Position numbers and translations under genes: made by a program. Below are positions 5,491 to 53,737 of a stretch of DNA of 64,000 bases, piece after piece (the stretch's first letter is position 1; each line of letters begins with the position of its first letter). Source of the stretch: a bacterium. Lineage in GTDB: Bacteria; UBA10199; 2-02-FULL-50-16; JAJFLM01. The DNA is taken from positions 128,001 to 192,000 of the forward strand of contig CBDCFN010000015.1 of assembly GCA_965216315.1 (NCBI GenBank), written 5' to 3'. The notes under the pieces are model-generated. The model saw only the letters and a list, made by a program, of their open reading frames with translations, had not been told where the DNA came from and searched no databases.

Positions 5491-6681
5491 TCAAGTTTCG
5501 GAGAGACGCTTATTTCGTTGATGATGGCGATCTAACAGGCAATCCGCCGCGACACGCATCGCAGGCCAGGCGGGCAACGCCCGAACGATCATCCTCGTTG
5601 TATCGATGACATAATCCCCATCGACCTGAACGGGAATTGCAAAAGGCTGCCCTTTTTCATCTGAAAAGAAAATTTCCATGGACTGTCCCTGTAGCAATTG
5701 TAGCTGCAACTCCGCCTCAAGTCTTTCAATGCGATCATCAGGGCCAATTTGCATGGACTTGCCTTTCAAAGCCGCTTTCCCCTTGCCCTGCACCTCACGA
5801 AAAATTTTATACATTTGCCATATTGACCCTAGCGGATAGCCCTTGACCCCAAGACCCTGTATCGGTGTCCCCGGAAAGGCATTGCTGCCATCCGCTAAAG
5901 GCGTGCCATGAAAAAAAACCTCGCGCGATACAAACTGATGATCACCATATTGGCTATGCTTCCAATTGACATGAAAAGGGCGAGACAACACGACATTTTT
6001 TCCACCGATCATTTTGCGCTTGATATGCACCCACTTGCCGTGCCCCGTTCGCGTCGATTTGAACATAGCCGCGATGGTCGTCCCCGCACCCGCATTATGG
6101 GAAAAGATAATCGGTTCATTGATGCCATCCAGTTCAAGCCAACCAAGATTTAATGGCACCGTCGTATGAGAGCGCAGGTAATCAATGCAATCGGATTCAT
6201 TGGCACCGGGCGCCCCTGCCATAACGCTGAGGTCATTGGCACTCCCTAAACGAATCACGCCGACGCGGAGTCCACTGGCCGCCATTCGAGCCGCTACTTC
6301 GTCCGCCGACTGTTGAATCATATCTTGTTGGTTTGGAAAAATGTAGAGCAAGAGGCCACGGACTACTTCGTTCATCGTGCCATCTCCACCAAAGGCGATC
6401 ACATCCAAAGGTGTATCGGGACGGAAGGTCTTAAATTGACGAACAGCCGCCGCAACCAAACGAACCGTCTCGAAGGGATCTTCCACGGTCCTCACGGGCG
6501 GGAGCATCCTGAATTCTTGCTGCAAGGCCCGATCGGCCTCCATGACATTCGTGACATTCTCGGCAATAGTTGGGGCATTGCCGCTCCCGGCGACCGGATT
6601 CACAACGGGCAAAATATAATGAGGAGCCGCCGCCAAAACAGGCGCCAGCGAAGCTGCTGAAAGGGACCCTAAGACCACCAT
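5491..6681 (-). CDS. Diacylglycerol/lipid kinase (YegS/DgkB-like) family protein, divergent
   Basis: NPVAGSG, GGDGTMNEV, GSANDL, QVDGD motifs. Confidence 0.75.
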   Translation of the reverse strand: MVVLGSLSAASLAPVLAAAPHYILPVVNPVAGSGNAPTIAENVTNVMEADRALQQEFRMLPPVRTVEDPFETVRLVAAAVRQFKTFRPDTPLDVIAFGGDGTMNEVVRGLLLYIFPNQQDMIQQSADEVAARMAASGLRVGVIRLGSANDLSVMAGAPGANESDCIDYLRSHTTVPLNLGWLELDGINEPIIFSHNAGAGTTIAAMFKSTRTGHGKWVHIKRKMIGGKNVVLSRPFHVNWKHSQYGDHQFVSREVFFHGTPLADGSNAFPGTPIQGLGVKGYPLGSIWQMYKIFREVQGKGKAALKGKSMQIGPDDRIERLEAELQLQLLQGQSMEIFFSDEKGQPFAIPVQVDGDYVIDTTRMIVRALPAWPAMRVAADCLLDRHHQRNKRLSET

Positions 6682-6691
6682 ACCGAAGAGG

Positions 6692-6717
6692 TCTTCGGGA
6701 TGATGACAAGAAAGTTG
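6692..6717 (-). promoter_or_regulatory. CAAC-N16-CGAAGA alternative-sigma promoter motif
   Basis: GCAACTTtcttgtcatcatcCCGAAGA, 10 nt before ATG 6681; same motif precedes other orphan genes. Confidence 0.6.
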
Positions 6718-6736
6718 CTTAAAATATAAGCACTTA

Positions 6737-7495
6737 CTAAAGACGGACGGGAACCTGATTTCTCTTAAGATATCGCTTCACTTGGCCGACCGTGAGTTCT
6801 CCAAAATGGAAAATCGAGGCTGCCAAGGCAGCATCCGCCCGACCCTTGGTGAGGCCCTCATGGATGTGAGCTTGGTTGCCCACGCCCCCCGAGGCGATGA
6901 CTGGAACTTCGACGGCCTCAGCGATCGCACGGGTTAACTGGAGATCATAGCCGATCTTGGTCCCATCGCGGTCCATGCTGGTTAAGAGTATTTCGCCGGC
7001 GCCATAACGCACCATTTTTTGTGCCCATTTGACTGCATCGATGCCGGTCGGCGTGCGACCGCCATGAATATAGACCTCCCACTTGCCGGGCTTGACTCTT
7101 TTGGCATCAATGGCGACGACGATGCACTGACTGCCGAACCGCTTGGAGGCACGCTTTACCAAATCCGGATCCTTGACCGCCGCGGTATTCATCGCGCACT
7201 TGTCTGCTCCGGCCTTCAGCAACATACGCACATCTTGAATACTGCGAACACCGCCCCCAACGGTTAACGGCATAAAAACTGTTTCCGCGGTCTTGCGGAC
7301 AACATCCAAAATGATCGGGCGCCTTTCATGACTTGCCGTGATGTCGAGAAAAACCAATTCATCCGCCTTTTGCCGATCGTATTCCTTTGCCACCGCCACC
7401 GGATCCCCCGCATCCCGCAAATTGACAAACTTAGTGCCTTTGACAACGCGACCATCTTTCACATCAAGGCAAGGTATTATTCGCTTTGTCAGCAT
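6737..7495 (-). CDS. hisF: Imidazole glycerol phosphate synthase cyclase subunit
   Basis: [40 protein letters not shown]. Confidence 0.98.
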
Positions 7496-7647
7496 CAGTT
7501 AATCTCCAATAGCGAACGACGTGAGCGAGAGGGAGAGGCTCCGGAAGCTTTGCTTCTGGAGGGGGCGACGCAAGCCCCTATAAAAGCTCCTTTGACAACA
7601 CGACCGTCTTTCACATCAAGGCAAGGTATTATTCGCTTCGTCAGCAT
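7495..7647 (-). pseudogene. Duplicated hisF 5' fragment fused to a palindromic insert (50-codon mini-ORF)
   Basis: 7589-7647 repeats 7437-7495 at 56/59 identity; ORF ends in a TGATG overlap with the hisF start. Confidence 0.8.
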
Positions 7648-7649
7648 AT

Positions 7650-24015: not shown

Positions 24016-24501
24016 ATGCCATCTTTCGACATTGTCAGCGAATTAGATCGCCAAGAACTCAAAAACGCCGTCGACCAAGTCATCCGCGAAGTCAAACAAC
24101 GCTATGACTTCAAGGGCAGCAAATCAGAGATCAAGGAAGAGAATGACAACCTGACCTTTATTTCTGACGACGACTTTAAAATGAAGGCCTTGATCGACAT
24201 CTTCCAATCCAAGGCCGTCAAACGTGGCCTCGACCTCAAAGCCTTTGATTATGGAAAAATAGAACCTGCTGCAGGCGATACCGTACGTTGTTCGGTGAAA
24301 GTCGTCGAAGGTATCGAAAAAGAAAAGGCTAAAGATCTGGTCAAAAAGATCAAGGACATGAAACTCAAAGTTCAGGCTGCCATTCAAGAGAACCAAGTCC
24401 GCGTGACCGGAAAAAAACGCGACGATTTGCAGGACGTCATCGCCGCCGTCAAAGGCTTGGACTTTGCTATTCCGTTGCAGTTTGAAAATTTCCGGGACTA
24501 G
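24016..24501 (+). CDS. yajQ: YajQ family nucleotide/c-di-GMP-binding protein
   Basis: MPSFDIVS, RYDFKG, RVTGKKRDDLQ, NFRD. Confidence 0.96.
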   Translation: MPSFDIVSELDRQELKNAVDQVIREVKQRYDFKGSKSEIKEENDNLTFISDDDFKMKALIDIFQSKAVKRGLDLKAFDYGKIEPAAGDTVRCSVKVVEGIEKEKAKDLVKKIKDMKLKVQAAIQENQVRVTGKKRDDLQDVIAAVKGLDFAIPLQFENFRD

Positions 24502-25316
24502 CTATCGCGAGGTCTCGATGACGGTGGCTTACTCCGCCGCAGCAACTGGTTACTTAGTTGATAAAGGTGAAAACTAAGTTTGCGGTGGAGCCCGAGCTGC
24601 ATTACTTGCTCGGCTAAGGCGAGGGAATGACTCAAGAGGCGCTCGATATGCTCAGGCTTGAGGTGACCGCTGGCCGCTCTCAGGGCTTGGCTCACTAATT
24701 TCAAATCATCAAAGTCTTCATAGGCCAGCGTCTGGCGAGCCTCATCGTCATCAATTTCCTCATTTTCTTCATCATGCTCTGCGTGGATCAGCAATATCGC
24801 TAAATCAACTTGCTCTTTAGCAAACTCGAGAGCACGAACTTCATCATTCAACTGAGAGGCATAGTGGCTCGCACGGCCCAAAAGGTCATACTTCTCGAGA
24901 CCGGCCTCCATGCCCATCAAGGCCTCCTGGAGCAGTATAAGTGCCTCCGTCTCAATAAGTTCAGCGAGTAGAGCATCGGCGAGTAACGGCGTGTATTTGA
25001 AGCCGGTCGGATCGTCTTCGCTGGGCGGGACCGAGGGGCTTTTACTTAAGCCGGCTGTCATCCGGTCATGAAATAATTGAATACGGTCCAAGCCACTCAC
25101 GGGTCGACCCATCCTTACGGCGTAGAGCATGCAGAAATCCCTGAGGGGAGCGACCAACATGCCGGCAATTAACTGCCGGCCATCGGTCACCGAGTCATCG
25201 ACGATGCCGGCTTCCCGCGCTGCTTGGTACAAATTATTGACTAACGAGGGCTTGGGAGAACCCGCCGCAAGCAAACAAGCGGACTGACTAGAGATGCTGA
25301 CGCCAAGCAGATTCAT
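24498..25316 (-). CDS. Hypothetical helical protein (paralog of 25332..26570)
   Basis: 272-aa ORF; motifs shared with the upstream neighbour. Confidence 0.7.
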   Translation of the reverse strand: MNLLGVSISSQSACLLAAGSPKPSLVNNLYQAAREAGIVDDSVTDGRQLIAGMLVAPLRDFCMLYAVRMGRPVSGLDRIQLFHDRMTAGLSKSPSVPPSEDDPTGFKYTPLLADALLAELIETEALILLQEALMGMEAGLEKYDLLGRASHYASQLNDEVRALEFAKEQVDLAILLIHAEHDEENEEIDDDEARQTLAYEDFDDLKLVSQALRAASGHLKPEHIERLLSHSLALAEQVMQLGLHRKLSFHLYQLSNQLLRRSKPPSSRPRDS

Positions 25317-25331: not shown

Positions 25332-26570
25332 TTAGTCTCGCTCCGAGGGACCTTTGACAGGCCGGGTGGGGCGGCTGTCCTCACCGTCTTCTAGTTCGCC
25401 CTCTAGTTGTTGACGCATTTTATCCTCATGACGCCCGGCCCATATATGTAGACGTTCGGCCACATCTCCTTCAAACTTGTGTTCCGTAATCTGTTTTAAT
25501 AGCGCTAATGACTGCTCATCAACCGGCAGCCGATGCAATACAGCAAACATTTGTCTGAAAAAACCACCCGCCCACTCATGTTCACCCCCTTGAGCCAAGG
25601 TCCGTCCGGCGATCCAGAGATATTCGAAGCGGCGTGCGACATCCTCACGATCGATATGGCCAATAATGCGCTTGATATTATCGTAATGGGCATGAGCCTT
25701 ATCTTCTTCGCCTTGACTCAATTGCCGCAAGACCGATTCGGCTTCTTCGCCGATGACATCAACCAGCTTCGGCATGATTTTCCGTAGCGGCTCTTCCACG
25801 TTACTTGGCAACAACTCCTGAACCAGTTGTTGTTTGAGATGTTCGAGAGATGTTTTTTCGTGTTCCTGGGCCACACCGCTTAAGTCTGATTCCTTTAAAG
25901 TGCGCTGTGCATATTCGATTAAGTCGAGACGTTCTTGTATATTAAAAAAACTCAGGTCTTCGATCACCATGCGAAGTTGATTAAACGCGACGACATATAC
26001 TGTGCTGTCTTCCCCCCTATTGGCAATCTTTTGCCAATCCGCATCCACCTTCAACATTGTAAATGCAATTAATGACTTTGCTAGAGAGATAGCGTGAATT
26101 CTTTTACCCATTGTCACTGCATCAAGGATATCCTGAATCCTTAGGCGGCGTTCAACAGCATAATCGGTAAGATCCGTTACCTTAGGACCATCATCATGGG
26201 CTCCAAAAACTTTCAACGAGACAGCAAGAGAATCGCTGCCTAGCTCTTCTAACAATAAATTGGCGAGATAAAGGCAATAAATGCTTCTATTAGAGCTATC
26301 AACCAACTCGCCAAGCTCACCTATCTGATCGGCATCGAGGCCCTTAGTGACACGTTCATGAAACACAGAGAGGCTACTGGTTTTGCCGCAGACATCATTG
26401 ATCTGATTGGCGAGCAACAGTGCCAATAGCGAACGCGGTCCTTCATGTTTATAGACAGTCCCTCGCTCTTCATGGTGAAGAACGAGAAAATTACTCCAGA
26501 GTCTTGGAGTCTTACTGCTGGCGAGGATCGCCGTCGTCGCCAACGATGACGCATTCATCAATATATGCAT
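25332..26570 (-). CDS. Hypothetical helical protein
   Basis: 412-aa ORF with a CAAC-N16-CGATAA motif 7 nt upstream. Confidence 0.72.
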   Translation of the reverse strand: MHILMNASSLATTAILASSKTPRLWSNFLVLHHEERGTVYKHEGPRSLLALLLANQINDVCGKTSSLSVFHERVTKGLDADQIGELGELVDSSNRSIYCLYLANLLLEELGSDSLAVSLKVFGAHDDGPKVTDLTDYAVERRLRIQDILDAVTMGKRIHAISLAKSLIAFTMLKVDADWQKIANRGEDSTVYVVAFNQLRMVIEDLSFFNIQERLDLIEYAQRTLKESDLSGVAQEHEKTSLEHLKQQLVQELLPSNVEEPLRKIMPKLVDVIGEEAESVLRQLSQGEEDKAHAHYDNIKRIIGHIDREDVARRFEYLWIAGRTLAQGGEHEWAGGFFRQMFAVLHRLPVDEQSLALLKQITEHKFEGDVAERLHIWAGRHEDKMRQQLEGELEDGEDSRPTRPVKGPSERD

Positions 26571-26577: not shown

Positions 26578-26683
26578 TTATCGCCTACCGCAGGCGCTTG
26601 TTGTGACGCGTAAGGATTATCTGTTTACTGGAGTCAACAGATAACGAACTGCATAGACAACAGATATTTCTAAAAGTCGAAAA
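26578..26683. promoter_or_regulatory. Back-to-back CAAC-N16-CGA promoter motifs
   Basis: Minus strand 26578-26603 CAAC-N16-CGATAA; plus strand 26658-26683 CAAC-N16-CGAAAA. Confidence 0.62.
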
Positions 26684-26692: not shown

Positions 26693-27607
26693 ATGTACAG
26701 CTCTCTCGCAGTAATAAATAGCGCGGCGCTAAGCGGGTCGCTGGTCCTCGCGTCGGGGAGTTACCCTCCGGCCCCCGAAACCCCTCATTCCAATTCGAGT
26801 CCCGTCGATGTCTTTGCCACAACGTTTCCCGGCCACGCGCTGGGGCCCTTCACTACTACCGTACGTTATCCACAGCTCCGCGAGGATATGCCCGTGTTGG
26901 AGCCTGAGGGTGGAGAAAGCGCTTTAATCGCACTGGGTCTCTTCGCCGAAGTCGGTGCTTGTTTCTATTTTGCATCGAATGGAACATTGCTTTCTCCATT
27001 ATTAGCTGTTTCCTTAACCGCTTTTGCCGCAACTGTGTTTGTTGGAAGCCGTGTGTTAGGAAAACTAGTTGAACGCTATCTAGACCATATCCGCTCCGAC
27101 CAAGATCCACAGAGTCAAGAGTTTCAACAGGTGGAGTCAAGATTAGCGGGGCTCTATCCCGAAACAGAACGTTATCTCAGAATCGGCCCCGGCGTTAAAG
27201 AAAGTGATCGAACTCATTATAAGAAGTGGCGGCAGGATATTTCTGAGGCCATCCTACAGCTCAAACATATTCGCCAACGAGACCCGATGCGCATCCTTAA
27301 ATGGCTACCTCCCGGCTGGGCCATTCGATTCTTCTTATATTTAGATAACAGCCGTGAGGCTCCTATTTATAAACATGAACTAATGACGCAAGTCATCGAG
27401 GCCCATGAGAATAGACTCGCACAAATTCCGCTTGAACTCTCAGACTTCTACAGCGCCTTCCGGGGCCGCGTTCACTCTCGTCTCCACTTTGGTGACCTTA
27501 TCCCGGATAGCCAAGAGAAATTAGAAGCAGAAGCGGAACTCGCTGAAGCTGAATTGGCGGGAATAGAAGCGGACGATCGGAAGGCAATCTACGACCCAGA
27601 CGACTAG
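26693..27607 (+). CDS. Hypothetical protein with two hydrophobic segments
   Basis: 304-aa ORF; hydrophobic at about aa 77-122. Confidence 0.7.
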   Translation: MYSSLAVINSAALSGSLVLASGSYPPAPETPHSNSSPVDVFATTFPGHALGPFTTTVRYPQLREDMPVLEPEGGESALIALGLFAEVGACFYFASNGTLLSPLLAVSLTAFAATVFVGSRVLGKLVERYLDHIRSDQDPQSQEFQQVESRLAGLYPETERYLRIGPGVKESDRTHYKKWRQDISEAILQLKHIRQRDPMRILKWLPPGWAIRFFLYLDNSREAPIYKHELMTQVIEAHENRLAQIPLELSDFYSAFRGRVHSRLHFGDLIPDSQEKLEAEAELAEAELAGIEADDRKAIYDPDD

Positions 27608-32105: not shown

Positions 32106-32127
32106 ATTAAGCTATTAAAATTATTAA

Positions 32128-33780: not shown

Positions 33781-33853
33781 TGGGCCCGATAGGACTTGAA
33801 CCTATAACGACCCGGTTATGAGCCGGGTGCTCTACCAATTGAGCTACAGGCCC
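33781..33853 (-). tRNA. tRNA with CAT anticodon, probably tRNA-Ile2 (lysidine); CCA not encoded
   Basis: GGGCCTGTAGCTCAATTGGTAGAGC..CCCGG-CTCATAA-CCGGG..GGTTCAAGTCC; paired 1-72 end. Confidence 0.93.
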
Positions 33854-33903: not shown

Positions 33904-35667
33904 CTAATCAATGAAGCTTCGCAACCTTTTTGCTCGCGACGGGTGTCGCAACTTGCGTAAGGCCTTGGCCTCGATCTGTCGGATACGCTCACGTGTGACC
34001 GAGAAGTTGCGCCCGACCTCTTCTAGCGTATGGTCAGACTTCTCTCCGATCCCAAAACGCATCCGCAAGACTTTTTCTTCACGAGGCGTTAATGTCGCCA
34101 AGACCCGCTGGGTCTGTTCCGCAATATTCAGCCCCGTGACCGCATCGCCCGGCGTCGGGATATTCTTGTCCTCGATAAAATCACCTAAGTGCGAATCTTC
34201 CTCTTCCCCGATGGGGGTTTCCAGCGAAATGGGCTCCTTAGCAATACGGAGCACCTTGCGCACCTTTTCGAGTGGCAATTCCATCTTTTCGGCAATCTCT
34301 TCCGGCGTCGGCTCACGACCTAATTCCTGAACAAGATGGCGGGATGTCCGGACCAACTTGTTGATCGTTTCAATCATGTGCACAGGAATACGGATCGTCC
34401 GGGCCTGGTCCGCTATGGCCCGCGTAATGGCCTGACGGATCCACCAAGTCGCATAAGTACTGAATTTATACCCGCGCCGGTACTCAAACTTGTCCACCGC
34501 CTTCATCAAGCCGATGTTGCCTTCCTGAATAAGGTCAAGAAACTGCAGGCCTCGATTGGTGTATTTTTTGGCAATACTCACGACGAGGCGCAGATTCGCA
34601 TCGACCAATTCATTCTTGGCAAGAGCCGCGTAACGCTGCCAGCGTCTGATATCTTTGAGAATCTTCCGTAGTTCTTTCGTATCAAGACCGCACTCACGTT
34701 CCGCCTCACGAATGATTTTTTTCGCTCCCTTGTAAGTATCGATATGCTTGACCACATCTTCCTTACTCATCCGCAGATCAGTGGAGATCTTTTTCTCCAT
34801 GTATTTGGAGCGGCCAAATTTATCGATGAGCTCGGGCAGCTTATCCGCAGGCACACTGAGTTTGCGTCGCACTTGCGAAACAACTTTTTCTTGATCATCA
34901 ATCGTATCAACCAACTCATGAATGCGACCGATCAAACGATCGATGGTCTTGCGGTTAAGTCGCATTTCCTTCACAACGTCTAATAGCTGATCCAAAGCCT
35001 CATCCGCCTGCTGCTGCGCCTTTTCGCGATTTTCCGCCCGCAAGCGTGCGTTCTGCGATTTGGCCTTGTACGTCGAGTACTGCTTGCTCAACTTACGTAT
35101 CTTGGTGAGATACTGTAAAAAGTGGCTCGCATAGGCTTCTTCGTCAACGGACTCTTCGCTGTTCTGCTCGCTTTCTTCAAAATCTTTGACAAGTTCAGTA
35201 ACACTGACATCGCCCTTTTTGATCTTCTCACCCATGCGATTGAATTCATTCAGCCCCATGGGTGCCGACAGAAGGGTTCTCAAAGCTTGATCTTCACCTT
35301 CTTCAATGCGCTTGGCGATCTCAACTTCCCCTTCGCGTGTCAACAAGGCCACCTGGCCCATCTTACGCAAATACATCCGGACCGGGTCCGTTGAGCGAAC
35401 GACTGGCGTCTCCTCGACAGGAACCGGACGTGAACTCTCCGGTTTCTCCGTCGTTTCTTCCTTTTTCTTGACGGCTTGAGCCGCTTTTTCGTCGTTGACG
35501 ATTTCAATATCCATGTCATCAAACATGGACAGTACGCCATCGAGTTGATCGGGTGAAACCATGTCACCCGGAAGGGCATCGTTGACTTCCTCGTAGGTGA
35601 GAAAGCCCTTTTCCTTTCCGCGGTGAATCAGCTGCTGAACACCCTGCGTCTCGTTTTTCTTCGCCAT
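33904..35667 (-). CDS. rpoD: RNA polymerase primary sigma factor
   Basis: Region 1.1, [38 protein letters not shown]. Confidence 0.98.
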
Positions 35668-38429: not shown

Positions 38430-38455
38430 CAACAGTTGGGCAGGCGGTCCGAAGA
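38430..38455 (+). promoter_or_regulatory. CAAC-N16-CGAAGA promoter motif
   Basis: 6 nt before ATG 38462. Confidence 0.6.
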
Positions 38456-38461: not shown

Positions 38462-39832
38462 ATGTCATTGGGACTGAGCTCAATTGGCTCACTGCACACC
38501 GCCACGCTGATGACATCGGGGCTATGTGCAGCGACCTCGACGTCTTCGTTCAGCGCCGACCAGCTAAGCGCCTTTAATCGGCTGACCATCGCCGAGGATC
38601 ATCGGCCGGACTATCCCGGCGGCCCTCTCGGCACGCGCCACTTTAACGGACAAGTTCTCACACCCATCGCAAGCCCGCGGGCCTCGATAGGAAACGTCTT
38701 GTTGATCAATTCGGGCGGAGACAGCCGCGGCTACAACTGCATCAACTACGGAGCCTATCTCGAACTCACCGCCGGTAAACTCCGTGTCTTTGGCAGCATG
38801 AACGGTTTTGCGGGACTGACGAATCCACGTCCGCAGATCATTGAGCTCAACTCGCATATCACCTCGCAGCTCGCCCACGAAGGGCACCTGCTGCTCGCGA
38901 CCGGGAGTCGTCGCTGCGGCCCTTACGACCAGATTCCAGGCCTCGCCCAAGAGGCGCCGTTGAATAACTTCATGGCGAACATCGCCCCCTTTCTCGGTGG
39001 CCTGCTCGTCGTCGGTGGCGATGGAACCCTCCAGCTCTGCCAACGACTCGTAAAGGAAGCAGGGATCAAAAACCTGATCTTCGCCGGGGCGAGTATGGAC
39101 GGGGACATCCCGGGCATGGAGTCCTCGATCGGTATGGACTCCTCCCTCGACTACGTCGTCGGCGCCATTCGCTCGATCCAGCGAACATCCGGCAGTTGCA
39201 ACAAAGTCCACATCATTCAGACGATGGGCGGAAACAGCGGCCGTTTTCCCCTGGAAGCCGCCCACTCGGCCGGCATCCGGGCCGTCATCGTCCCCGAATT
39301 GGGTACGATAGACATGCAATACATCTACCGCCTCTTATTTAAGTCTTTACTGGAAAATCGCGGCGCCGTCCTCGTCATCGGGGAGAAGGGGAGTTACCGC
39401 ACCATGCACGGGGAAAAAATTTCCTTCGCCCCCCAAAAGGGTTCGATGAACGGCAAAGAGGTTGAAAAGTTGCGCGCGATCGTCGATCAAGAAATGAACG
39501 AGGTAGCCGCAACACTTTATCCTGATCTCAAAATCTCCACGCGCACGAACATTCTCGGTCATGCCCAACGCCAGCCCGGCAAATTGGCGCAAATCGATCT
39601 TCGTGAGGGCATGGATATGGGGCGCCGCATGGTCCGCGCCCTGCTCGGAGGAGATGAGGGAATGATAATCCCTATGGATGAACGTGATCCGATGATATCA
39701 ATTGACGATGCCCTCTCAGAAAATTCGCGGCAGGCCGGCCGAACCCGCGTCCTCAAGCGCTGGCTGGACAATTTTGGGCCCTTTTATCCGGAGCTCACAG
39801 ACCGATTGCGTGAACGCGAATCCCGCCCGTAG
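38462..39832 (+). CDS. Divergent PfkA-family (6-phosphofructokinase-like) protein with N-terminal extension
   Basis: SGGDSRGYN, GGDGT, SMDGDIPG, SIG, TMGG, LGHAQR. Confidence 0.78.
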   Translation: MSLGLSSIGSLHTATLMTSGLCAATSTSSFSADQLSAFNRLTIAEDHRPDYPGGPLGTRHFNGQVLTPIASPRASIGNVLLINSGGDSRGYNCINYGAYLELTAGKLRVFGSMNGFAGLTNPRPQIIELNSHITSQLAHEGHLLLATGSRRCGPYDQIPGLAQEAPLNNFMANIAPFLGGLLVVGGDGTLQLCQRLVKEAGIKNLIFAGASMDGDIPGMESSIGMDSSLDYVVGAIRSIQRTSGSCNKVHIIQTMGGNSGRFPLEAAHSAGIRAVIVPELGTIDMQYIYRLLFKSLLENRGAVLVIGEKGSYRTMHGEKISFAPQKGSMNGKEVEKLRAIVDQEMNEVAATLYPDLKISTRTNILGHAQRQPGKLAQIDLREGMDMGRRMVRALLGGDEGMIIPMDERDPMISIDDALSENSRQAGRTRVLKRWLDNFGPFYPELTDRLRERESRP

Positions 39833-39839: not shown

Positions 39840-39865
39840 CAACTTTTCTCCCGCCCCGGCGACAC
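39840..39865 (+). promoter_or_regulatory. CAAC-N16-CGACAC promoter motif (weaker -10)
   Basis: GCAACTTttctcccgccccgGCGACAC upstream of ORF 39909. Confidence 0.5.
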
Positions 39866-39908: not shown

Positions 39909-41492
39909 ATGCACATGTCATCGGCACTTTTAAATACGGCACTCGTAAACCAATCGGCTCTGGCAGCCTCATCCACCGTTACCACGGGAATCAACCTGCC
40001 TTATCCTTCGGGAACGCGTTTTCTCCACGAGATACTCGTGGACACCGCTGCAACCGCCCGTTTCGCCAACATCTTTGCAGATGTTCGCCTACCGAGCTCC
40101 CCGCAAGATTTTCAACGGACTTATCGTCACGCGGTTATGCATTTTGAAGGGGCCCGCACCGCCTCACCGGATCGCACCGAGATCGCCACTCATCTGGCCG
40201 GCTTGTCGCAGGAGCGCATGGTATATGTTGATGAGACCGGCAAAGAAATACCGCTACTCGACTACATGTTAGGGGAAGCGGATCCACTGCCGATCGCAAC
40301 CATCGAGTTCTCCGGCGCGGGGTTGATGCCGCGCATTTCTTACGGCAACACGACTCATCAAGGTGAGGAAATCATTTCCCTCGCCAGTGATTTTGCGGAC
40401 CGTCACATGGCCTCACACGCCGCAACGGATGCCTTGCAATGGATTATTGAAAACGGCCGCGATGAAAATGGGCACGTCAATTTAAAGGGTCAGAAGTTTG
40501 CGATCCTCGGCGCAGGAGCCGAATTATCGCCGACCCAAGTTCTCCTTGAGGCCGGTGCCGATGTCTTGTGGATTGACCTCAATCCCCCCTCGGAAGAGTT
40601 TCTTCAGCGACCCGGACTCAGTGGCAGCATTACTTTTGTCCCCGAGCGCCAGGCGGACCTGCTGAATCGACCTCGCGAAATCGCCGAGACGATTGAAAAG
40701 TTCGCTGACGGCCAAGCCGTCAACATCGGAACCTTTGCCTACGCTGCCGGCTCCGGCCTCGAGTGGCGGCTGACCACGGCGATGAATGTCATTGTACGTC
40801 GCCTGCGTCCCGAAACGATCAAATCATACAGTACGTTTATCTCGCCGACCTCGCCGGCCGTGACGCAGCCGGACGACTTAGACGCGGCCCGTGCCGGAGT
40901 GCGCGTCAAGCACATGTTGGTTTCGGCCGCACGCCTCTTCGGGCGTCTTCGACCAAATCACCATCCATATGGCAATATCCATATGGCCGATACAATCGTG
41001 CCCTTGCAAAAAACGGGCTATCAAGGGGCCCAATACATCGAAAAAGTTTGTGCCGCCGAGGCCATCGCCGCCTACGGCAACCGGATGGACCGGCACATCG
41101 GCCACCCGGTCACCGTCTCCGCCAACGTCGCGGGCATCAGCCAGACCAAGAACATGCAGATCCCCGCCTTTCAATTGGGTTTCATCGGGGCGCCGGCTTT
41201 TGGACTTGAGACCTACCAGCCGGAAACCACGCGCTGGCTCAGCGGGTTAATCATGTTATCGGATCTCTTAAACGAGGCGTCGCCGGCAACACCTTCAACG
41301 TCCTATCGCGATGAACAGGATCGGGCTCGGGCCCTCTTTTCACGCCAGGTTCACGGGGGGATCTTTGCCCACCCCTATGCCTTGAATGAATTAATCACTT
41401 TGGCGGGACTCGTCGGAGCAAAGCGCAACCTGCGGCTGGCCGCGCGCGCACTCGCCGAACAATTAAAGGGTGGCAAGAAAAAGAAAGGCTAA
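39909..41492 (+). CDS. Hypothetical protein with Rossmann-like motif
   Basis: 527-aa ORF; FAILGAGAELSP..LLEAGADVLWID dinucleotide-binding-like segment. Confidence 0.75.
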   Translation: MHMSSALLNTALVNQSALAASSTVTTGINLPYPSGTRFLHEILVDTAATARFANIFADVRLPSSPQDFQRTYRHAVMHFEGARTASPDRTEIATHLAGLSQERMVYVDETGKEIPLLDYMLGEADPLPIATIEFSGAGLMPRISYGNTTHQGEEIISLASDFADRHMASHAATDALQWIIENGRDENGHVNLKGQKFAILGAGAELSPTQVLLEAGADVLWIDLNPPSEEFLQRPGLSGSITFVPERQADLLNRPREIAETIEKFADGQAVNIGTFAYAAGSGLEWRLTTAMNVIVRRLRPETIKSYSTFISPTSPAVTQPDDLDAARAGVRVKHMLVSAARLFGRLRPNHHPYGNIHMADTIVPLQKTGYQGAQYIEKVCAAEAIAAYGNRMDRHIGHPVTVSANVAGISQTKNMQIPAFQLGFIGAPAFGLETYQPETTRWLSGLIMLSDLLNEASPATPSTSYRDEQDRARALFSRQVHGGIFAHPYALNELITLAGLVGAKRNLRLAARALAEQLKGGKKKKG

Positions 41493-42361
41493 GGCAGCGT
41501 CTTGCGTTTGGTTGGAGTGGGGGGATCGCTGTCTTCGTCTTCAGTCTTCATGCGAATCACGTGATCCATGAAAACTGCGGGGTCGACGTAATAGATGCGG
41601 GCTTCATCGTCTTCCGCTTCGCCGACGGGCGTGAGGCTATTCGGATCATAAAGCTGGCCTTCTTCAGCCTTTTCATCGGCCTCGTCTTCAACGCGATTAA
41701 GCACAAACGGTTGACCTTCCTCCATAACCTCGCTCAGAGCTTCACCGACACAGCTCCCCGCATCTTTCACCTCGATAGCATAGATCGCCCAGTAGACGAC
41801 ATTACCCAGCGTTCCGTTAACCTTAATGCTGTAGAGACCTGACTCGACACCCGCCTTAAACCGAAACTTAATCGTTCCATCGGCTTCAACGGGCAACTGA
41901 TAGCCCGGTTTACCTGGATCCGCATCTCCGGGGGTTATCGTCAACCCTAAGTCAGCAATCGACGGAGAACCACTGACACCATCTTTCTCGATAAAGAGAT
42001 CCACCGTCGGCCCATCACTCATCGGCTCAACGGTTCTCACTTCGGTCTCCGACCATTCGACCGTTTGGCCTTCGGTATAACTGCAGAGCGGTTCGCGAGA
42101 CAGAACGAGCCGCAGACATTCATAATCCGTCGCGGCACGACAATCGATTTGGGGAATTGGGGCTGCGACCTGGTGATCCGTTTCTCCGGGACCCGCGAGC
42201 GGGGGAGTATCCATCGCTTCGCTACTCCCGCCGACATCGACACCTTCCGCACCTTCGGTGATGGTTGCACCGGTCGCGGCCGGACCACCGCCGGTCTCAA
42301 AACAGGCACAAATGAAAACAATCACGATGAGAGGGTAAAATATACGCATTCCGCCAGACAC
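41489..42361 (-). CDS. Acidic lipoprotein, hypothetical
   Basis: Lipobox ICAC; SD GAGGAG. Confidence 0.7.
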   Translation of the reverse strand: MSGGMRIFYPLIVIVFICACFETGGGPAATGATITEGAEGVDVGGSSEAMDTPPLAGPGETDHQVAAPIPQIDCRAATDYECLRLVLSREPLCSYTEGQTVEWSETEVRTVEPMSDGPTVDLFIEKDGVSGSPSIADLGLTITPGDADPGKPGYQLPVEADGTIKFRFKAGVESGLYSIKVNGTLGNVVYWAIYAIEVKDAGSCVGEALSEVMEEGQPFVLNRVEDEADEKAEEGQLYDPNSLTPVGEAEDDEARIYYVDPAVFMDHVIRMKTEDEDSDPPTPTKRKTLP

Positions 42362-42376: not shown

Positions 42377-42403
42377 TTATCGGCCGGAGGCTCCACTAAG
42401 TTG
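42377..42403 (-). promoter_or_regulatory. CAAC-N17-CGATAA promoter motif
   Basis: GCAACTTagtggagcctccgGCCGATAA; the -10 equals the FliA consensus GCCGATAA. Confidence 0.62.
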
Positions 42404-42472: not shown

Positions 42473-42730
42473 CTAATCTTCAATACGCTGTCCCGACGCC
42501 CTTTGCGGACTCGATGCGCCCCGTCGTGCCGCCGTCAGCGGCGCCGCGCGTCCTTCACACATCAGCGTCAGCTTCTTCAGCGAATGGTCATCGGTCCCCG
42601 TAATCTCCAGCGTACACGCCTCATCGGCATGCTCCGCTTGGGCCGTATGAATTTCATCCCGACACGCCGGCCAGGATTTGGGATCATCAAGCGTATAAAC
42701 ACAAGTCTCAACAGTTCTTACATCAGGCAT
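42473..42730 (-). CDS. Small hypothetical protein with 4 Cys
   Basis: Strong SD GGAGG; promoter motif at 42775-42800. Confidence 0.6.
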   Translation of the reverse strand: MPDVRTVETCVYTLDDPKSWPACRDEIHTAQAEHADEACTLEITGTDDHSLKKLTLMCEGRAAPLTAARRGASSPQRASGQRIED

Positions 42731-42774: not shown

Positions 42775-42800
42775 TTATCGTCGAACACTGGCAAGAGTTG
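42775..42800 (-). promoter_or_regulatory. CAAC-N16-CGATAA promoter motif
   Basis: ACAACTCttgccagtgttcgACGATAA. Confidence 0.6.
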
Positions 42801-46500: not shown

Positions 46501-49201
46501 TCCAGAGCCCCTCCCCACTTAAGTTCTGTTCCAAGATTTCGAGAAACGAATACGCCTCATCCCCCCACAAAGGCCGGAGTTGACCGAGTGTACTGTCGAG
46601 AACGATGTTTTCCGTTACCGCCGCGCCGACATCCGCCAAGACATTCATGGTCCGCACGCCAAACTCGGCACCATTATAAAGTCGGCGCAACCAAAAAGTA
46701 TCGGCCGAGAAACCCATCCTTGCCAAATCATCCGCCCACATCATGAAGGGACGACCGACGAGATCGAGGGCTCCAAAGAGCCCGATCGACTGGACATAGC
46801 CAAAGCCAAAGCTCAAGGCGTGTTGCCCACCGGTTCTCTCTAAGTCAATGCGCCGCTCGCCGTGCGCCAGTGAATCAATCACAATCGCGGAACTTTCAAA
46901 GAGCGTCCCCATTTGAAACGCGTTGTAGGCATAACCGCCGATACTCAAACCACCAGTCGCATTGAGACCACGGGTTGTCCCCAAGATCGCTCGGAGGCGC
47001 GTCATCGCGGTGGCCGTCTGGGTTACTTGCGCCGTCTCATGAAAGGTGACCCAATAACGCCCTAACGACGTCCCGACGCGCGAAGCGACAGCTCCAACCC
47101 CGAAGGTGACAACGACCATCGCCGTCGTCTCGATCAGGCGGACCATCGCATCGCGGCCCTCATTCATTTCGAGGATCTGATTGACCATGCCGTCGTAGTA
47201 GTCATCGTCGGGATCACCGTTGCCGAGTAGATCCTGAAAAAAGACTTCCTCGGATCCGAAGCGATCCGCCATGACCGCGATGTCATGATCCGCCTCAAGG
47301 AAGGCCGCTTCGATCTCCTCCGGAGTCCGCGCATCGGCCAGATCATTCAAGGCACTGTCGAGATGATTCAGCCGCGAATAACACTCTTCGCCGAAGGCAC
47401 GCAGATAGGCCAATGATTCATCTTCCAAAAAGATCTCATCCCAATCGATGAGATTGACGTTATGGTACTGACCGACGATTTCGCGGACGTCCCAGAGCGT
47501 GTTCATGCGATCGACGATCGAGGCCATGCGTAAGATCCGGTTGAATTCTGCGGTCATCGCCTCAAAATCATTCGGATCCGCACTTAAGAATTGTTCGAAG
47601 GCCTCTCCAACCGGCCGGTCAAAATAAGCTGCCATCGCATACGCATGATCGCCATGACTTGTGTCTTGTGGAGGGAGTCCGGCCAACATGGCCTCACGTC
47701 CGTAGATCGAGTCCAACGTTTCAATCATGCTTTGATGAACGAATTCATTGTATGGCGTCGCCAAACTCGAAAAATCAATTTCACCCGCACTCCCTAAGGC
47801 GACGGAACAATCCCTTTGAAGCTGGGTAATCTCACTGGATCCGGCACGATGAGGCTCGAGCGCAACGATGCTGGCAAACAGCGCCACGTCCTGCACACTC
47901 ATTTCGTCGGCGTACTGTTCGGCAAGGAAATCGATAGCGCAATTAATCGGTTCGCGCCACTGGCCGTTCGATTGACGTTCGCGCCAGTCGGCAGGTCGAT
48001 ACACATCTTGAGCATAGTGAACGAGCCAGGCACTGGTCTGAACTTCGAGCTCCGCAAGAACTTCCGGATCTTCCTCGACAAGGGCTAACTGAAGTTGATT
48101 GCGCAACATCGTCAACTCACGTCGTCGCTGCGAATTACCGATCCCATACAATTCAATTATGTTCAGTGATGCGATCAATACCTCGGCTTCGTTTTCAGAT
48201 TCTTGATAATTACTGATCACATCAATCTGGGCGCGCACCAGCGCCGTCAACGTGACATCTTCGTGCATATCATCCCAGTCCTCCCGACGCCGTTTCGTCT
48301 CATGAATATCGAGCACATTCTCAAGATAGGCGAGGGCGACGTAGTTTTCACCGACGTGGGGAATGCTCAGCTGTCTCGTCAGCTCATCGATGCGATCCAA
48401 ATCTTGATAGCTCAAAGGTTGATTGACGCGCACAACCTGCTGGAGCAGGCCCCGGGACTCGGAAGCTATATAATTAAAACGGAAGCGTTCGTCAGCACTA
48501 ACCGAAGGATTGTCTGTCAGGGCCTCATAAAGGAAAGGATGAGCCTCACGAACGGCCGATATGACATCCGATTCGGGATCCAACCCGCTTAACTGATCAC
48601 TATAAGTAGCGGCCGTATGAATATAGGGTTCACTAGCTTCGGCATAGGCTGCAATTGACTCGAGCATCGCACGATGGGCTTCCATTGATTCCTCGTTACC
48701 CAAGGCCGCCTGTAATTCACGCATTAGGCGCGTAGGAACTCCCTCAGCCAGCAATCCATTCTCCAAGGCATAAAGTTGTTCGGTCTCAAACCACAGCTGT
48801 AATTCAAGCTCTAATTGTGCTCTCAGTATTTCTATATCCGCACCCGACTCAAGCTCTGAGCGACCACGGGCGACGATCGTGCTTAGCACGATCGCGCCCG
48901 CTTCGCTCAATGGGCACTCCGGGAATAGTGCGCAAAGAGCTTCCAATTCATTAAGAAGTTCTTCCAGCGATTCCGCTGACACTGTGCCGGCTGTCTCGAT
49001 ACGATCGCGCTCCGCAAACAAACTCGTTTGATGCTGCAGGGCCGTTGTCGCATCGACATCAAAAACCGTTACCTCATCAGGCTCAAAAGTGACGACTTCG
49101 ACCGGCACGTCCGGCGTCGTAGAAGTTGTTGTCTCTTCCGACGTCAGTAACGAATCCGGCATCGGACCTAAATGTGTTGTGATGGATGAAAACCAAGTCA
49201 T
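43523..49201 (-). CDS. Giant acidic multidomain protein (hydrophobic core, GNAT-like, FHA-like, protein-kinase-like)
   Basis: 1892-aa ORF; LHDIGVFHNDVSPANV..LIDFGES; GTLTING..LMEGDTILIG; HQQNGVFSSL. Confidence 0.8.
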   Translation of the reverse strand: MTWFSSITTHLGPMPDSLLTSEETTTSTTPDVPVEVVTFEPDEVTVFDVDATTALQHQTSLFAERDRIETAGTVSAESLEELLNELEALCALFPECPLSEAGAIVLSTIVARGRSELESGADIEILRAQLELELQLWFETEQLYALENGLLAEGVPTRLMRELQAALGNEESMEAHRAMLESIAAYAEASEPYIHTAATYSDQLSGLDPESDVISAVREAHPFLYEALTDNPSVSADERFRFNYIASESRGLLQQVVRVNQPLSYQDLDRIDELTRQLSIPHVGENYVALAYLENVLDIHETKRRREDWDDMHEDVTLTALVRAQIDVISNYQESENEAEVLIASLNIIELYGIGNSQRRRELTMLRNQLQLALVEEDPEVLAELEVQTSAWLVHYAQDVYRPADWRERQSNGQWREPINCAIDFLAEQYADEMSVQDVALFASIVALEPHRAGSSEITQLQRDCSVALGSAGEIDFSSLATPYNEFVHQSMIETLDSIYGREAMLAGLPPQDTSHGDHAYAMAAYFDRPVGEAFEQFLSADPNDFEAMTAEFNRILRMASIVDRMNTLWDVREIVGQYHNVNLIDWDEIFLEDESLAYLRAFGEECYSRLNHLDSALNDLADARTPEEIEAAFLEADHDIAVMADRFGSEEVFFQDLLGNGDPDDDYYDGMVNQILEMNEGRDAMVRLIETTAMVVVTFGVGAVASRVGTSLGRYWVTFHETAQVTQTATAMTRLRAILGTTRGLNATGGLSIGGYAYNAFQMGTLFESSAIVIDSLAHGERRIDLERTGGQHALSFGFGYVQSIGLFGALDLVGRPFMMWADDLARMGFSADTFWLRRLYNGAEFGVRTMNVLADVGAAVTENIVLDSTLGQLRPLWGDEAYSFLEILEQNLSGEGLWNHFMTVGLIRAGGLMNSGSLVRRPRQENVVPELTPIIEFDHWLEMTTLPDFNLAEAGPGQQAMTCLVPLAGVLATVFDGGLSMAMAIFGSDDGSGIYYGYEDADPMSDRNQRENRHAREIARRAQRILRDEYGIDISADVLRTEYYHADNGGVAGEFKTGQNGRRNHGDLGNIEAQVQALVDAALPVHRNSPSLGAVVDQLIDRHDSVSLSMLPDWSRQRFIEQERSRLTDEISGLLVEAEVNSYDLLSPDVRTEFERRWAERVTDYLSRSDVWLIISDSPQGRYEFALTRLFQDQWSSSELASVLGEGFTREILGIQPEADFYIDRYAAEPLGPGQYRLLAFRANEQIGSFMYQVEADGGVRIIGASTVDGHQQNGVFSSLFQIATANAPYIITKVANPETDAALREAMAEGHSLEEAFLATPLGKARTRSGFNQHEITFVDRGNGIFHVTSTRMDQARPIPIEADGSILEGIRYEIDDGEMWVQATEGTLTINGRERTDGQDYSLMEGDTILIGDTYYARILGELRPVQLAPDDAPRLYPTQHENFYTGDLRDNGDGNQTKIALPTALNFEQNALAWIQFNGMEGFTPALIGRVRPDALIISRVPGESLDRLTVEERAEIPTEAWDRFADNLSQLHDIGVFHNDVSPANVVWDGVELRLIDFGESRTRRDLLDEASRIMAADDLRRAEEMQAAIEAGGTGYHIHPTRGDEAKTAMSLHDAVDIPVEPISMQEPEVTPVIAMDAVAIRPVEAATEVTVVEGKGVRNEEALVDDNNFWVSELSRVETYANHIISRYQHAPERYVELRQPIEQLANLMSEFMRVRDVDDEASTPETRESLESYYLRELLPVFNVIWTPEFRAREEARRNEANERDAQLLNLNLTLGGLMLASRDNNGQAALTYHIDSEASTVQLQLTTESGSVPYIFSFEGTGSEPTMPDLIARQELELQLDLARHLVELGFGVERLTEVFGTDGIQALYDTGILLPRTGTMD

Positions 49202-49981: not shown

Positions 49982-50005
49982 TAGTAATACTTTCTAGCCT
50001 TCATC

Positions 50006-51693: not shown

Positions 51694-51695
51694 CG

Positions 51696-52766
51696 TTACG
51701 AAATCACTTCCTTTAATTGAGGCGATCCTTCCTTGTTCGGAACATCCAAGGCCTGCAGCCTGTCATGAAAACGAGCGAGACGTTTGTCGGAGTTTTCATA
51801 GCTGGAACGCGCATGATTAAGATGAGTTCCAATCTTAGCAAAATCCTGTTCAAAGGTCTTAAAATCAATCTTGAGACGCGCAAGATTCGCCATAATCTCG
51901 TGAATGCTTTCTTCGATCTTGAAACCGCGCAGCCCTAACAGAATCGTATTTAAGTAGGCATAAAAATTATTCGGCGAAATCGGAACAACCCGTCGGCTCA
52001 AGGCGTAGGTCGAAAGGGCCTTATCGCCTCCAAACTCGTCATCCTTAATGATGGTTTCATAATAAACATTTTCCGCCGGAATATACATGAGCGCGAAATC
52101 AAAAGTCCCTTCATCGGGACGAATATATTTATTGGCAATCGCATCGACATGTTTTTTGACATCCGTCCGAAACAGCCGATGGGCCGTCTTTTTCTCAGAC
52201 TCGTTCTCGGCGCTACAAAACTTACGAAAGTTTTCGAGCGGAAACTTGGAATCGATGGGCACCAAATGATCCCCTAATTTCACCACAGCGTCCACGGCTT
52301 CCCCGTTTTTAAAACGATGCTGCAAGGTAAAATGTTCCATCGGCATCACCTGCGCCAGCAAATCCCCCAAGAATAATTCGCCGAGTGATCCTCTCAATTT
52401 GGGCGCCTTCAAAATTTCCTGTAACGAAGCAATATCGCGACCGACCTCAAAAATACGGTCATTCGCCGCTTCCATCTTGCCGAGACGGCTCTGTACTTCA
52501 CCAATGACGCGAGCCGCATTATCGAGTCGTGTTCCGACTTGTTGTTGTGAGGTCTGCATCACGTCGATGTTCTTCTGGAGATGTTGATTGATGACTTTAT
52601 TGAGTTCCGAAACTTGGTCCTGCATTTCTTTGCGAAGGCCACCAAACTGATCTTGCAACGCCAGCAGTGAAGTCTCCGCGGCATCATTTTTGCGGCGCAG
52701 CGCGACAACAGCCAAAATACCGATGGCCAGGCAGGCGATTCCAAATAATATCCAGGGTAAGGGCAT
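51696..52766 (-). CDS. rmuC: RmuC family protein
   Basis: KLRGSLGE, IDSKFP, KYI, DFALMYIPAE. Confidence 0.92.
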   Translation of the reverse strand: MPLPWILFGIACLAIGILAVVALRRKNDAAETSLLALQDQFGGLRKEMQDQVSELNKVINQHLQKNIDVMQTSQQQVGTRLDNAARVIGEVQSRLGKMEAANDRIFEVGRDIASLQEILKAPKLRGSLGELFLGDLLAQVMPMEHFTLQHRFKNGEAVDAVVKLGDHLVPIDSKFPLENFRKFCSAENESEKKTAHRLFRTDVKKHVDAIANKYIRPDEGTFDFALMYIPAENVYYETIIKDDEFGGDKALSTYALSRRVVPISPNNFYAYLNTILLGLRGFKIEESIHEIMANLARLKIDFKTFEQDFAKIGTHLNHARSSYENSDKRLARFHDRLQALDVPNKEGSPQLKEVIS

Positions 52767-52863
52767 GGAAAAGGCATCATAGCAGGGCCGGCTTGATTTG
52801 CAACCAAAGGGGGATTAGGGAGGATTGGCGAGACTTTTTGGCTAATTTTGCAACTATATAGAT

Positions 52864-53115
52864 ATGCCCCAGGTTAAAATCTACACGACTGATTACTGCG
52901 GTTTCTGTAATGCCGCCAAACGGCTGCTGGAAGCCAACCAGATTCCATTTGAGCAAATCCATCTCCAAGCGAGGTCAGAGTTGGATGCCCTGATCGCCAA
53001 AACGGGTCACTCAACACTGCCGCAGATTTTTATCGATGATGAACTAATCGGGGGTTTTCAGGAATTAAGGGAGCTGGACCAAAACGGGGAACTCAAGAAA
53101 AAACTGGGGGTTTAG
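52864..53115 (+). CDS. grxC: Glutaredoxin 3-like
   Basis: CGFC, TLPQIFI, IGG. Confidence 0.88.
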   Translation: MPQVKIYTTDYCGFCNAAKRLLEANQIPFEQIHLQARSELDALIAKTGHSTLPQIFIDDELIGGFQELRELDQNGELKKKLGV

Positions 53116-53549
53116 ACCCGGCCGCGACTACGAAGCGACAGGAGTTTGAGGTCATTTTGCAAATCAGCGCTGTCGGTATCCGTGGGAGCCTCCGGGGTAT
53201 AAGTCGGGGCTTCGGCACCGCGATTTTGGCCACCATTTTCAATAAAACGGCGATACTGAGCATGGGTGGCGATAGAAACGGCATCACCTCGATCTAATTC
53301 CCGATCATTGTCAGCATCCGTCCGCGAACTATTGATGATCTTCACTTCACCGTCAGAGGTCGAAACCGTCTGAAAGTCATGCTCATAATGCTCCAGCTTA
53401 TAGGAGACGCGACGCGACGCATCGGCCGAGTGCATGGTGCGAGCAACGGCCGAAGGCGCCCGTTCCGGACGGTCCCTACGGACCTCAGGGGTCTCGCGAA
53501 CTTCCGGGCGCTGCTGGACGCTCTGATTTTGGACATGATGTTCCGACAT
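53112..53549 (-). CDS. Hypothetical hydrophilic protein, sigma54-promoted
   Basis: 145-aa ORF; SD GAGG; sigma54 site at 53573-53587. Confidence 0.68.
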   Translation of the reverse strand: MSEHHVQNQSVQQRPEVRETPEVRRDRPERAPSAVARTMHSADASRRVSYKLEHYEHDFQTVSTSDGEVKIINSSRTDADNDRELDRGDAVSIATHAQYRRFIENGGQNRGAEAPTYTPEAPTDTDSADLQNDLKLLSLRSRGRV

Positions 53550-53572
53550 AAAATTCCTCAGCCTCTATAATA

Positions 53573-53587
53573 GCAAGTCCCGTGCCA
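53573..53587 (-). promoter_or_regulatory. sigma54 -24/-12 promoter
   Basis: TGGCAC-gggac-TTGC; IHF-like box at 53625-53645; a CAAC-N17-CGATAA motif also lies at 53652-53678. Confidence 0.8.
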
Positions 53588-53737
53588 ACTAGGCCCATAC
53601 TGGCATTTGATGCCAAAATAACTATAACTTACTAAAATTACTGACCTTTTATTATCGACCTCAGGAGGGGTTGGGTTGCGGCTCCCGGGTCCGTCATCCG
53701 GGCTTGGGGGTCTTACCCCCCATCTTGGTGCCTCGAC

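Follow-up and report, generated by a model that had tools for sequence, protein, structure and literature searches.

The stretch of DNA analysed here (the window; 64,000 nt, contig CBDCFN010000015.1, positions 128,001 to 192,000, from a bacterium of the phylum UBA10199) carries a bipartite motif, CAAC-N16/17-CGA, that recurs across the genome and is a real promoter type, sigma-28-like with an altered −35 box. The best overall explanation is that these sites are probably promoters for a FliA/WhiG-derived sigma factor encoded in a type III secretion (T3SS) cluster elsewhere in the genome. About 270 genes have strong sites, and many of their products share an uncharged N-terminal tag. The initial annotation of the window had proposed that one alternative sigma factor co-expresses a scattered set of accessory genes, possibly in contact with a host or prey, and this idea is supported and fits the data.

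Promoter Motif

All eight sites described in the initial annotation were confirmed to the letter, as were the short distances from the −10 hexamer to the ATG, which are 10 nt at 6692, 7 nt at 26578, 9 nt at 26658 and 6 nt at 38430. The loose pattern CAAC-N16/17-CGA has 50 matches in the window, mostly within genes, which is the point in favour of a chance match; because the window alone does not separate the motif from chance, the whole genome was analysed (G000; 2.96 Mb, 98% complete), for which a self-trained gene caller predicted 2443 genes with approximate starts. Intergenic counts of CAAC-Nx-CGA are 256 at x = 16, 81 at 17 and 62 at 18, compared with 28–54 at 12 other spacers, and no comparable spacer peak is found in coding regions. 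A position weight matrix (PWM) has the consensus (A/C)(G/A)CAACTTT-N11-GCCGATAA, or in short form RCAACTTT-N11-GCCGATAA, with a −10 element reading G-C-C-G-A-T-A-A. Above 14 bits it matches 225, 38 and 32 sites with N16, N17 and N18 in 1312 intergenic regions, against 0–5 in five doublet shuffles; since its training set came from this very genome, the spacer and reversed-pattern controls weigh more than the shuffles. In 81 of 81 sampled UBA10199 genomes, from 24 families, RCAAC-N16-CGATAA is present in 18–105 copies, compared with 0–7 for the reversed control, a figure that shows conservation and not 81 separate tests since these genomes are kin. Equal frequency in coding or shuffled DNA, which the initial annotation had named as one outcome that would count against it, was not found, and a chance origin of the motif is refuted.

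A same-strand start lies within 200 nt of 203 of 254 intergenic N16 matches, and ATG positions peak 5–11 nt past the −10 box, a short-leader class that comprises 82 of 205 N16 genes. Shine-Dalgarno-like sequences precede 12 of the 82 short-leader genes but 71 of the 123 long-leader genes. Given that sigma-28 transcription usually starts about 6–8 nt after the −10 box, ATG spacing alone suggests that mRNAs with 6–8 nt leaders may be leaderless. In total, 305 genes have a PWM match above 12 bits. The motif might instead be a transcription factor site, or an activator-dependent RpoD or RpoH promoter, and indeed RpoD too is universal and operator-like palindromes lie near some sites; this is very improbable, as the motif lacks symmetry, keeps a strict spacing and strand orientation and has its ATG peak 5–11 nt beyond, a canonical TTGACA/TATAAT-type promoter is present upstream of rpoH, and no RpoH-like sigma factor was detected in the relative G020. 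A reading of GCAAC as an opposite-strand sigma-54 box was rejected by eye on N18 sites, and a shared operator dyad was looked for upstream of N18 sites and none was found.

The canonical E. coli sigma-28 −35 box is TAAA(G), or TAAAGTTT. The sites described here have the sigma-28 −10 box GCCGATAA but lack the TAAA(G) element, with RCAAC in its place; the −35 reads GCAACTTT, in register with TAAAGTTT. Canonical TAAA-type −35 patterns number 9–11 in the genome, compared with 90 for CAAC-N16-CGATAA. The likeness of the −10 box to that of FliA, already pointed out in the initial annotation, is borne out by CCGATA, which is the FliA box given in the available text of PMC3627812.

The Sigma Factor and Its Secretion Cluster

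The sigma factors of the genome comprise RpoD, an RpoH-like factor, two of extracytoplasmic function (ECF) size, RpoN and one FliA/WhiG-like protein. The last, encoded at G000:C16:350583-351410, outside the window, is very probably the factor that reads the motif. FliA/WhiG is the family that it matches best, and the top PDB matches are to FliA and to a WhiG-like sigma factor of Streptomyces type. It carries SKSWTSRLH in region 4.2 where FliA has TESRVSQIH, and the helix SKSW[TV]SRLH, rather than one of the ESRVSQ type, is kept in 46 of 47 relatives. Region 2, still FliA-like, would read GCCGATAA, and the altered region 4.2 helix would read RCAAC, a link between helix and box that we infer. 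This FliA/WhiG-like sigma factor is present in all 81 genomes, mostly at 56–70% identity, and flagellin in only 10; in G000, which is 98% complete, neither FlgM (PF04316) nor flagellin (PF00669) has a match, and the regulon is not that of a flagellar FliA.

Recognition by an ECF sigma factor was also considered. A motif of AAC-N16/17-CGA with a T-tract resembles ECF promoters, as the initial annotation had suggested for the −35 box, and G000 has the two ECF-sized factors mentioned above. However, an ECF factor is not found wherever the motif is: in G020 (97% complete) only RpoD and the T3SS-cluster sigma factor were found, still with 79 exact sites, and four further genomes (G022, G009, G024 and G027; the five are 95–99% complete) add only an RpoH-like factor and carry 38–50 exact sites. 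Neither ECF operon of G000 has a site directly upstream. An ECF explanation of the −35 box is therefore not needed; it is very improbable and largely refuted, and could be rescued only by a divergent ECF factor missed by PF04542 in all five genomes.

The W-type helix is found in 118 of 150 representatives of the sigma subfamily, which reaches beyond the phylum, with some members named Acidobacteriota, and a T3SS core match lies near the sigma gene in 23 of 30 longer metagenome loci. Distant members of the subfamily stand beside sctJ homologues on high-GC metagenome contigs (loci L241-L320). A strong Sigma70_r4 match was also observed at the end of a 916-aa helicase-like open reading frame (ORF) in G000 (C16:91474-94224), which has no region 2.

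The sigma gene lies centrally within a T3SS cluster, non-flagellar and secretin-less, at G000:C16:339-374 kb. The cluster begins with sctV, FHA and tetratricopeptide repeat (TPR) genes, sctD, two small genes, a CdsG/SycD-like TPR gene and sctJ; continues with two small genes, the sigma gene, a gene in the sctK position, sctL, N, O and Q, a FliO-like gene and sctR, S and T; and ends with five large orphans, two SycD-like chaperones, an FHA-region sigma-54 activator and a kinase. SctV scores 806 bits (cut-off 692) and falls below the FlhA cut-off; SctN is above its cut-off, as it is for FliI clade 2, and R, S and T were matched with mixed Fli/Sct scores. With sctU/flhB, which lies apart from the cluster at G000:C16:805005-806090 adjoining a kinase and an FHA-GGDEF-like gene, an Sct-type export gate and ATPase (SctV, N, R, S, T and U) are present. 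The needle-position gene matches an Atlas cluster with PF09392 on 11% of its members and the tip-like gene one with LcrV on 12% (score 0.89), both recognized below threshold; the nearest Atlas clusters of the needle-position protein are mostly from Myxococcota, and its single-sequence model (pLDDT 59) has one long helix and is uninformative. Taken as a whole, the system is neither a flagellar FliA regulon nor an ECF regulon, and it is not a complete injectisome.

In G000 a sigma-54-like site lies ahead of the sigma gene. Through this site the neighbouring FHA-domain sigma-54 activator and kinase would switch the sigma gene on, and positive feedback would come from an N18 promoter that lies two genes ahead of it, an arrangement for which we consider the chances evenly balanced. 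Of 37 listed loci from relatives (L006-L040), about 24 have, directly upstream of the sigma gene, a fast-evolving ORF of 100–125 aa with a disordered-looking N-terminus; in G000 it encodes 119 aa (C16:350010-350369; L053:15010-15369). A Pfam scan of 24 members of this family gave no match, and the product could be FlgM-like, as a candidate anti-sigma factor, or SctX-like. Four paralogous orphans (460–611 aa) follow sctT at G000:C16:362938-370038 (L054:7938-15038), two with upstream N16 or N18 sites and two with sigma-54-like sites, and are possible filament or translocon subunits.

Two Spacer Classes

Throughout the phylum, promoters within the T3SS cluster have retained a spacer of 18 nt, whereas 16 nt is the usual length before dispersed genes. 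In 47 loci around the sigma gene in relatives, the PWM has 91 matches at N18 against 24 at N16 and 5–17 at other spacers, and the strict pattern gives 66 at N18 against 20, 5 and 13. When spacers of 11–23 were allowed, the best match was N18 in 29 of 32 sctJ-to-sigma intervals and in 22 of 24 intervals before the needle-position gene, but the share falls to 9 of 28 for intervals that follow sctT and to 4 of 19 for those upstream of the TPR gene. The N18 pattern is present in 37 of 37 genomes, with 3–27 copies against 0–4 for the reversed control. In G000, N18 spacers have a GC content of 55%, compared with 46% for N16, and N-termini resembling Sec or lipoprotein signals lie behind 14 of 29 N18 sites and 15 of 205 N16 sites, against 365 of 1958 other genes. 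Many of 30 N18 sites sampled in relatives precede orphans, and not all N18 genes are machine genes.

A tentative reading of these data is that one sigma factor uses two promoter geometries to give two timings or strengths, spacer length thereby ordering the programme. N18 promoters, with their GC-richer spacer, would drive machine and envelope genes, and N16 promoters, with a T-tract and often nearly no leader, would drive cargo genes; the two could be set apart by an activator or by DNA supercoiling.

The N-Terminal Tag and Regulon Content

Proteins encoded behind N16 sites often begin with an uncharged tag, defined by at most one charged residue in positions 2–26. The tag is found on 107 of 205 N16 proteins, compared with 140 of 1958 others and 7 of 66 N17/N18 proteins, and the motif [LVIA]LA[AS][SGAT] on 43 of 205 N16 proteins compared with 25 of 1958 others. 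Starts of regulon genes had been re-chosen using the motif, and motif-blind starts were run as a control; with these the tag is found on 78 and the LA motif on 35 of the 205, while the most upstream ATG of control genes gives 155 and 32 of 1953. Among short-leader genes 60 of 82 encode the tag, and among long-leader genes 47 of 123; its presence in the latter class too marks it as a property of the protein, not a side effect of the promoter. Of 159 tag-like proteins, 113 are encoded directly behind a site, and by eye about 12 of the remaining 46 appear to sit inside operons. Among ORFs of the close relative G081 that are 60 aa or longer and start 5–11 nt after a site, 15 of 19 are uncharged. 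In its present form the tag is limited to this lineage.

The tag is unlike a Sec signal, with K or R in residues 2–8 in 1 of 107 proteins and a strong h-region in 1 of 107, and 99 of the 107 protein bodies have no predicted membrane helix. T3SS signals are described in the available text of PMC2668754 as having few charges and high serine, and the tag is likewise N-terminal, serine-rich, poor in charges and non-Sec. It is also carried by the T3SS-cluster gene immediately after sctT. We slightly favour the view that this S/A/T/L-rich stretch, often with L-A-A/S near residues 13–20, is the T3SS export or chaperone signal of the lineage. The T3SS would be the obvious Sec-independent exporter of the tagged proteins because no type VI secretion system or contractile sheath was found in G000, in a search limited to these two.

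The regulon is rich in orphans. Proteins without a Pfam match at 1e-6 make up 65 of the 99 tagged N16 proteins scanned (of 107), 29 of the 44 untagged N16 proteins scanned (of 98) and 39 of the 56 N17/N18 proteins scanned (of 66), compared with 11 of 50 non-regulon proteins drawn at random from the same regions (Fisher p 7e-7 against the tagged N16 proteins). The initial annotation had noticed the motif before orphans and not before housekeeping genes; the enrichment in orphans stands, but exclusivity does not, as smc, uvrA, panD, ribBA, bioB and a DEAD helicase gene have sites, and even in the window a phosphofructokinase (PFK)-like gene at 38462 and a DAG-kinase-like gene at 5491 are not orphans. 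As a candidate for a conserved core member smc was rejected, its site being kept in 2 of 27 relatives scored (3 of 30 were skipped).

Tagged proteins with recognizable domains include five of histidine-kinase type (hybrid kinases among them), a response regulator, RelA-like, GGDEF, adenylate cyclase and Ser/Thr kinase proteins, as well as two patatins, a DAG kinase, a macro-domain protein, RtcB, several metabolic enzymes, an ACC and a FAS-like giant. Untagged paralogues exist for the tagged GDH, malic enzyme, RtcB, cysteine desulfurase, PFK, ACC and adenylate cyclase. The tagged GDH aligns with solved GDHs from residues 26–38 on (its residue 28 with residues 6–12 of several bacterial chains), and residue 81 of the tagged PFK aligns with residue 6 of a solved PFK. 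The FAS-like protein (3854 aa; G000:C15:370007-381571) and the ACC, a single chain of 2588 aa fused to biotin ligase (C16:1632121-1639887), are both tagged and encoded behind N16 sites; the ACC has its best matches among bacterial-type carboxylases, and the FAS-like protein has no PDB match at 1e-20. A tandem array of about 11 cysteine-containing paralogues from two families was observed at G000:C16:2161715-2185583, nearly each with its own very strong N16 site (15–27 bits).

A Candidate Secretion Programme and Its Alternative

The tagged proteins are candidate T3SS cargo, amounting to roughly 110–125 substrates that would probably be delivered to a prokaryotic host or prey. A prokaryotic target appears likelier than a eukaryotic one because neither ankyrin repeats (PF12796; 1 of 12 genomes positive, G081) nor an ATP/ADP translocase (PF03219; weak partial matches in 5 of 26 genomes) was found in G000. 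At its fullest the proposal, which we hold to be doubtful, is that the phylum lives on other prokaryotes by injecting more than 100 tagged proteins through a secretin-less T3SS, with one flagellum-derived sigma factor ordering the programme by spacer, 18 for the machine and 16 for the cargo. If true, the delivered metabolic enzymes (ACC, type I FAS-like protein, PFK, malic enzyme and GDH) and bacterial signalling enzymes (hybrid histidine kinases and the RelA-like, GGDEF and adenylate cyclase proteins) would reprogramme the host and not merely lyse it.

Several observations weigh against the favoured explanation of sites, sigma factor and tag. The favoured sigma factor scores below the TIGR02479 cut-off (133.1 against 189.6 bits), for which reason it is called FliA-derived and not FliA; factor and motif are both universal in the phylum, so there is no contrasting genome without either; and where distant members of the subfamily adjoin sctJ, the motif is not enriched (38 of 80 loci with a T3SS core match, 351 kb). 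The sigma-54 site is present in only 16 of 40 relatives' loci, a count made without a control, and the needle-position gene of G000 has an N17 promoter. No T3SS secretin was found, as two PF00263 matches, one in a type II secretion system (T2SS) operon and one weak, both lie outside the cluster; the sole clear secretin belongs to the T2SS operon. As for the tag, 98 of 205 N16 genes lack it, as do the needle-position and tip-like genes; it is weak in distant kin, at 2 of 18 in six genomes and 6 of 25 in G020 (five loci overlap); and it is leucine-rich, which is atypical of the polar signals described in the available text of PMC2668754. Of 30 tagged enzymes queried, 11 have no paralogue, and two tagged proteins, those of 2588 and 3854 aa, are very large.

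Alternatively, the same sigma factor could run a general life-stage programme of attack or dispersal, with the T3SS as one member and the tag serving degradation, compartment sorting or other export. In its favour, untagged genes are numerous in the regulon, which also holds lipoproteins, T2SS gspF, regulators and some housekeeping genes; distant relatives show the tag only weakly; no T3SS secretin was found; and there is a precedent in the FliA of Bdellovibrio (PMC3627812, available text). However, the tag is nearly confined to the regulon, mostly directly behind a site, it is carried by a T3SS-cluster gene and has been added to second copies of cytoplasmic enzymes, and the unconserved smc site speaks against a conserved cell-cycle core, so that a general life-stage programme is an unlikely account, although one to be kept in mind. 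Under the T3SS-cargo proposal, promoter box and tag together provide a genome-wide list of candidate substrates and a direct assay for a secretin-less T3SS, and give a clue to the lifestyle of a phylum represented here by metagenome-assembled genomes alone.

Comparison with Known Systems

In HrpL of Pseudomonas syringae, an ECF sigma factor encoded in a T3SS cluster is activated through sigma-54, and one promoter box marks both the machine and the scattered effector genes. The system described here would work alike in all three respects, unlike HrpL in that the sigma factor is FliA-derived and the target looks prokaryotic. In Bdellovibrio bacteriovorus FliA (sigma-28) governs an attack-phase regulon, which as described in the available text of PMC3627812 shares with the present one a sigma-28-type −10 box and a large membership of genes that are non-flagellar and uncharacterised; the lineage is a related one of predatory type. 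By comparison with that text, the differences here are a −35 of RCAAC rather than TTAAG, a sigma gene within a non-flagellar T3SS cluster, the rarity of flagellin, the conservation of two spacer classes and the protein tag that members share.

The needleless T3SS* of Myxococcus xanthus (mxan_2434-2464; PMC3459982, PMC12075869 and PMC10433427) likewise has an export apparatus, SctD/J/L/N/Q, several LcrH-type chaperones and no secretin of its own. Its effectors, like the substrates of secretin-less T3SSs, are not known according to the available text of PMC10433427, and the portions of these reports at hand name no sigma factor, regulon or effector, although the primary paper or supplements could name a sigma factor. 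Set against those same portions, the present cluster differs in its weak leads to needle-like and tip-like genes and in having sctU elsewhere in the genome. Chlamydial sigma-28 offers a parallel for retention without flagella in a T3SS-bearing bacterium; in the available text of PMC12282069 it bound only two genes, with a consensus-like promoter, unlike the large set with strong sites here.

A literature search that left supplements and most subscription papers outside its scope found no publication on the motif, the sigma subfamily or a UBA10199 T3SS. What is new here is the split between 18-nt and 16-nt spacers and the shared N-terminal tag. A flagellar-type sigma factor has been kept within an injectisome-type cluster, very probably with its −35 specificity changed, and if a 2-nt spacer difference, conserved in 20-odd families, does split machine from cargo promoters under one sigma factor, this would be an unusual hierarchy.

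Sites and Genes in the Window

Tag-like proteins are encoded behind five of the eight sites listed for the window, plus one tagged operon-internal gene. On the negative strand, the predicted N16 site at 6692..6717 (19.0 bits, ATG 10 nt downstream) precedes a 396-aa DAG-kinase-like protein with an uncharged N-terminal tag (5491..6681), the G081 orthologue of which is also tagged. A divergent pair of predicted N16 sites follows at 26578..26603 (−; 17.8 bits, ATG 7 nt downstream) and 26658..26683 (+; 13.8 bits, ATG 9 nt downstream). The former precedes a 412-aa orphan with no Pfam match and a tag-like N-terminus (25332..26570, −) and, behind it, a tagged operon-internal orphan of 272 aa without a promoter site of its own (24498..25316, −), and the latter a tagged orphan of 304 aa with no Pfam match (26693..27607, +). 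Between them, the palindrome TTATCTGTT-N10-AACAGATAA (26617..26644), a candidate operator, is centred 27 nt from each divergent −35 box. Its sole other near-identical copy is at G000:C16:104931-104958, between regulon genes and adjoining a DUF4423 gene.

Two predicted N16 sites on the positive strand follow one another at 38430..38455 (16.0 bits, ATG 6 nt downstream) and 39840..39865 (19.4 bits, with a 43-nt leader and a Shine-Dalgarno-like sequence). The first precedes a second-copy PFK-like protein that is tagged and has about 75 extra N-terminal residues (38462..39832, +), an untagged PFK being encoded elsewhere in the genome, and the second a 527-aa orphan that is tagged although its mRNA is leadered (39909..41492, +). 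The remaining listed sites are predicted on the negative strand: an N17 site at 42377..42403 (20.1 bits) before an untagged lipoprotein-like orphan (41489..42349, −), an N16 site at 42775..42800 (21.1 bits) preceding an 85-aa ORF (42473-42730, −) that was left out of the Pfam scan, and an N17 site at 53652..53678 (17.8 bits) about 100 nt ahead of a 145-aa orphan (53112-53549). A ninth strong N16 site, absent from the initial annotation, lies at 61549..61574 on the positive strand (21.6 bits), upstream of a TPR-SLT lytic transglycosylase gene.

Elsewhere in the window, rpoD (33904..35667, −) encodes the primary sigma factor, which was considered as a reader of the motif and not favoured. A 1892-aa orphan (43523-49201, −) has no Pfam match and no upstream motif, and shows a weak kinase-like segment at about residues 1500–1580. 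The sole Rfam matches are an RNase P RNA (32125-32568, −) and a tRNA (33781-33853, −), both ordinary.

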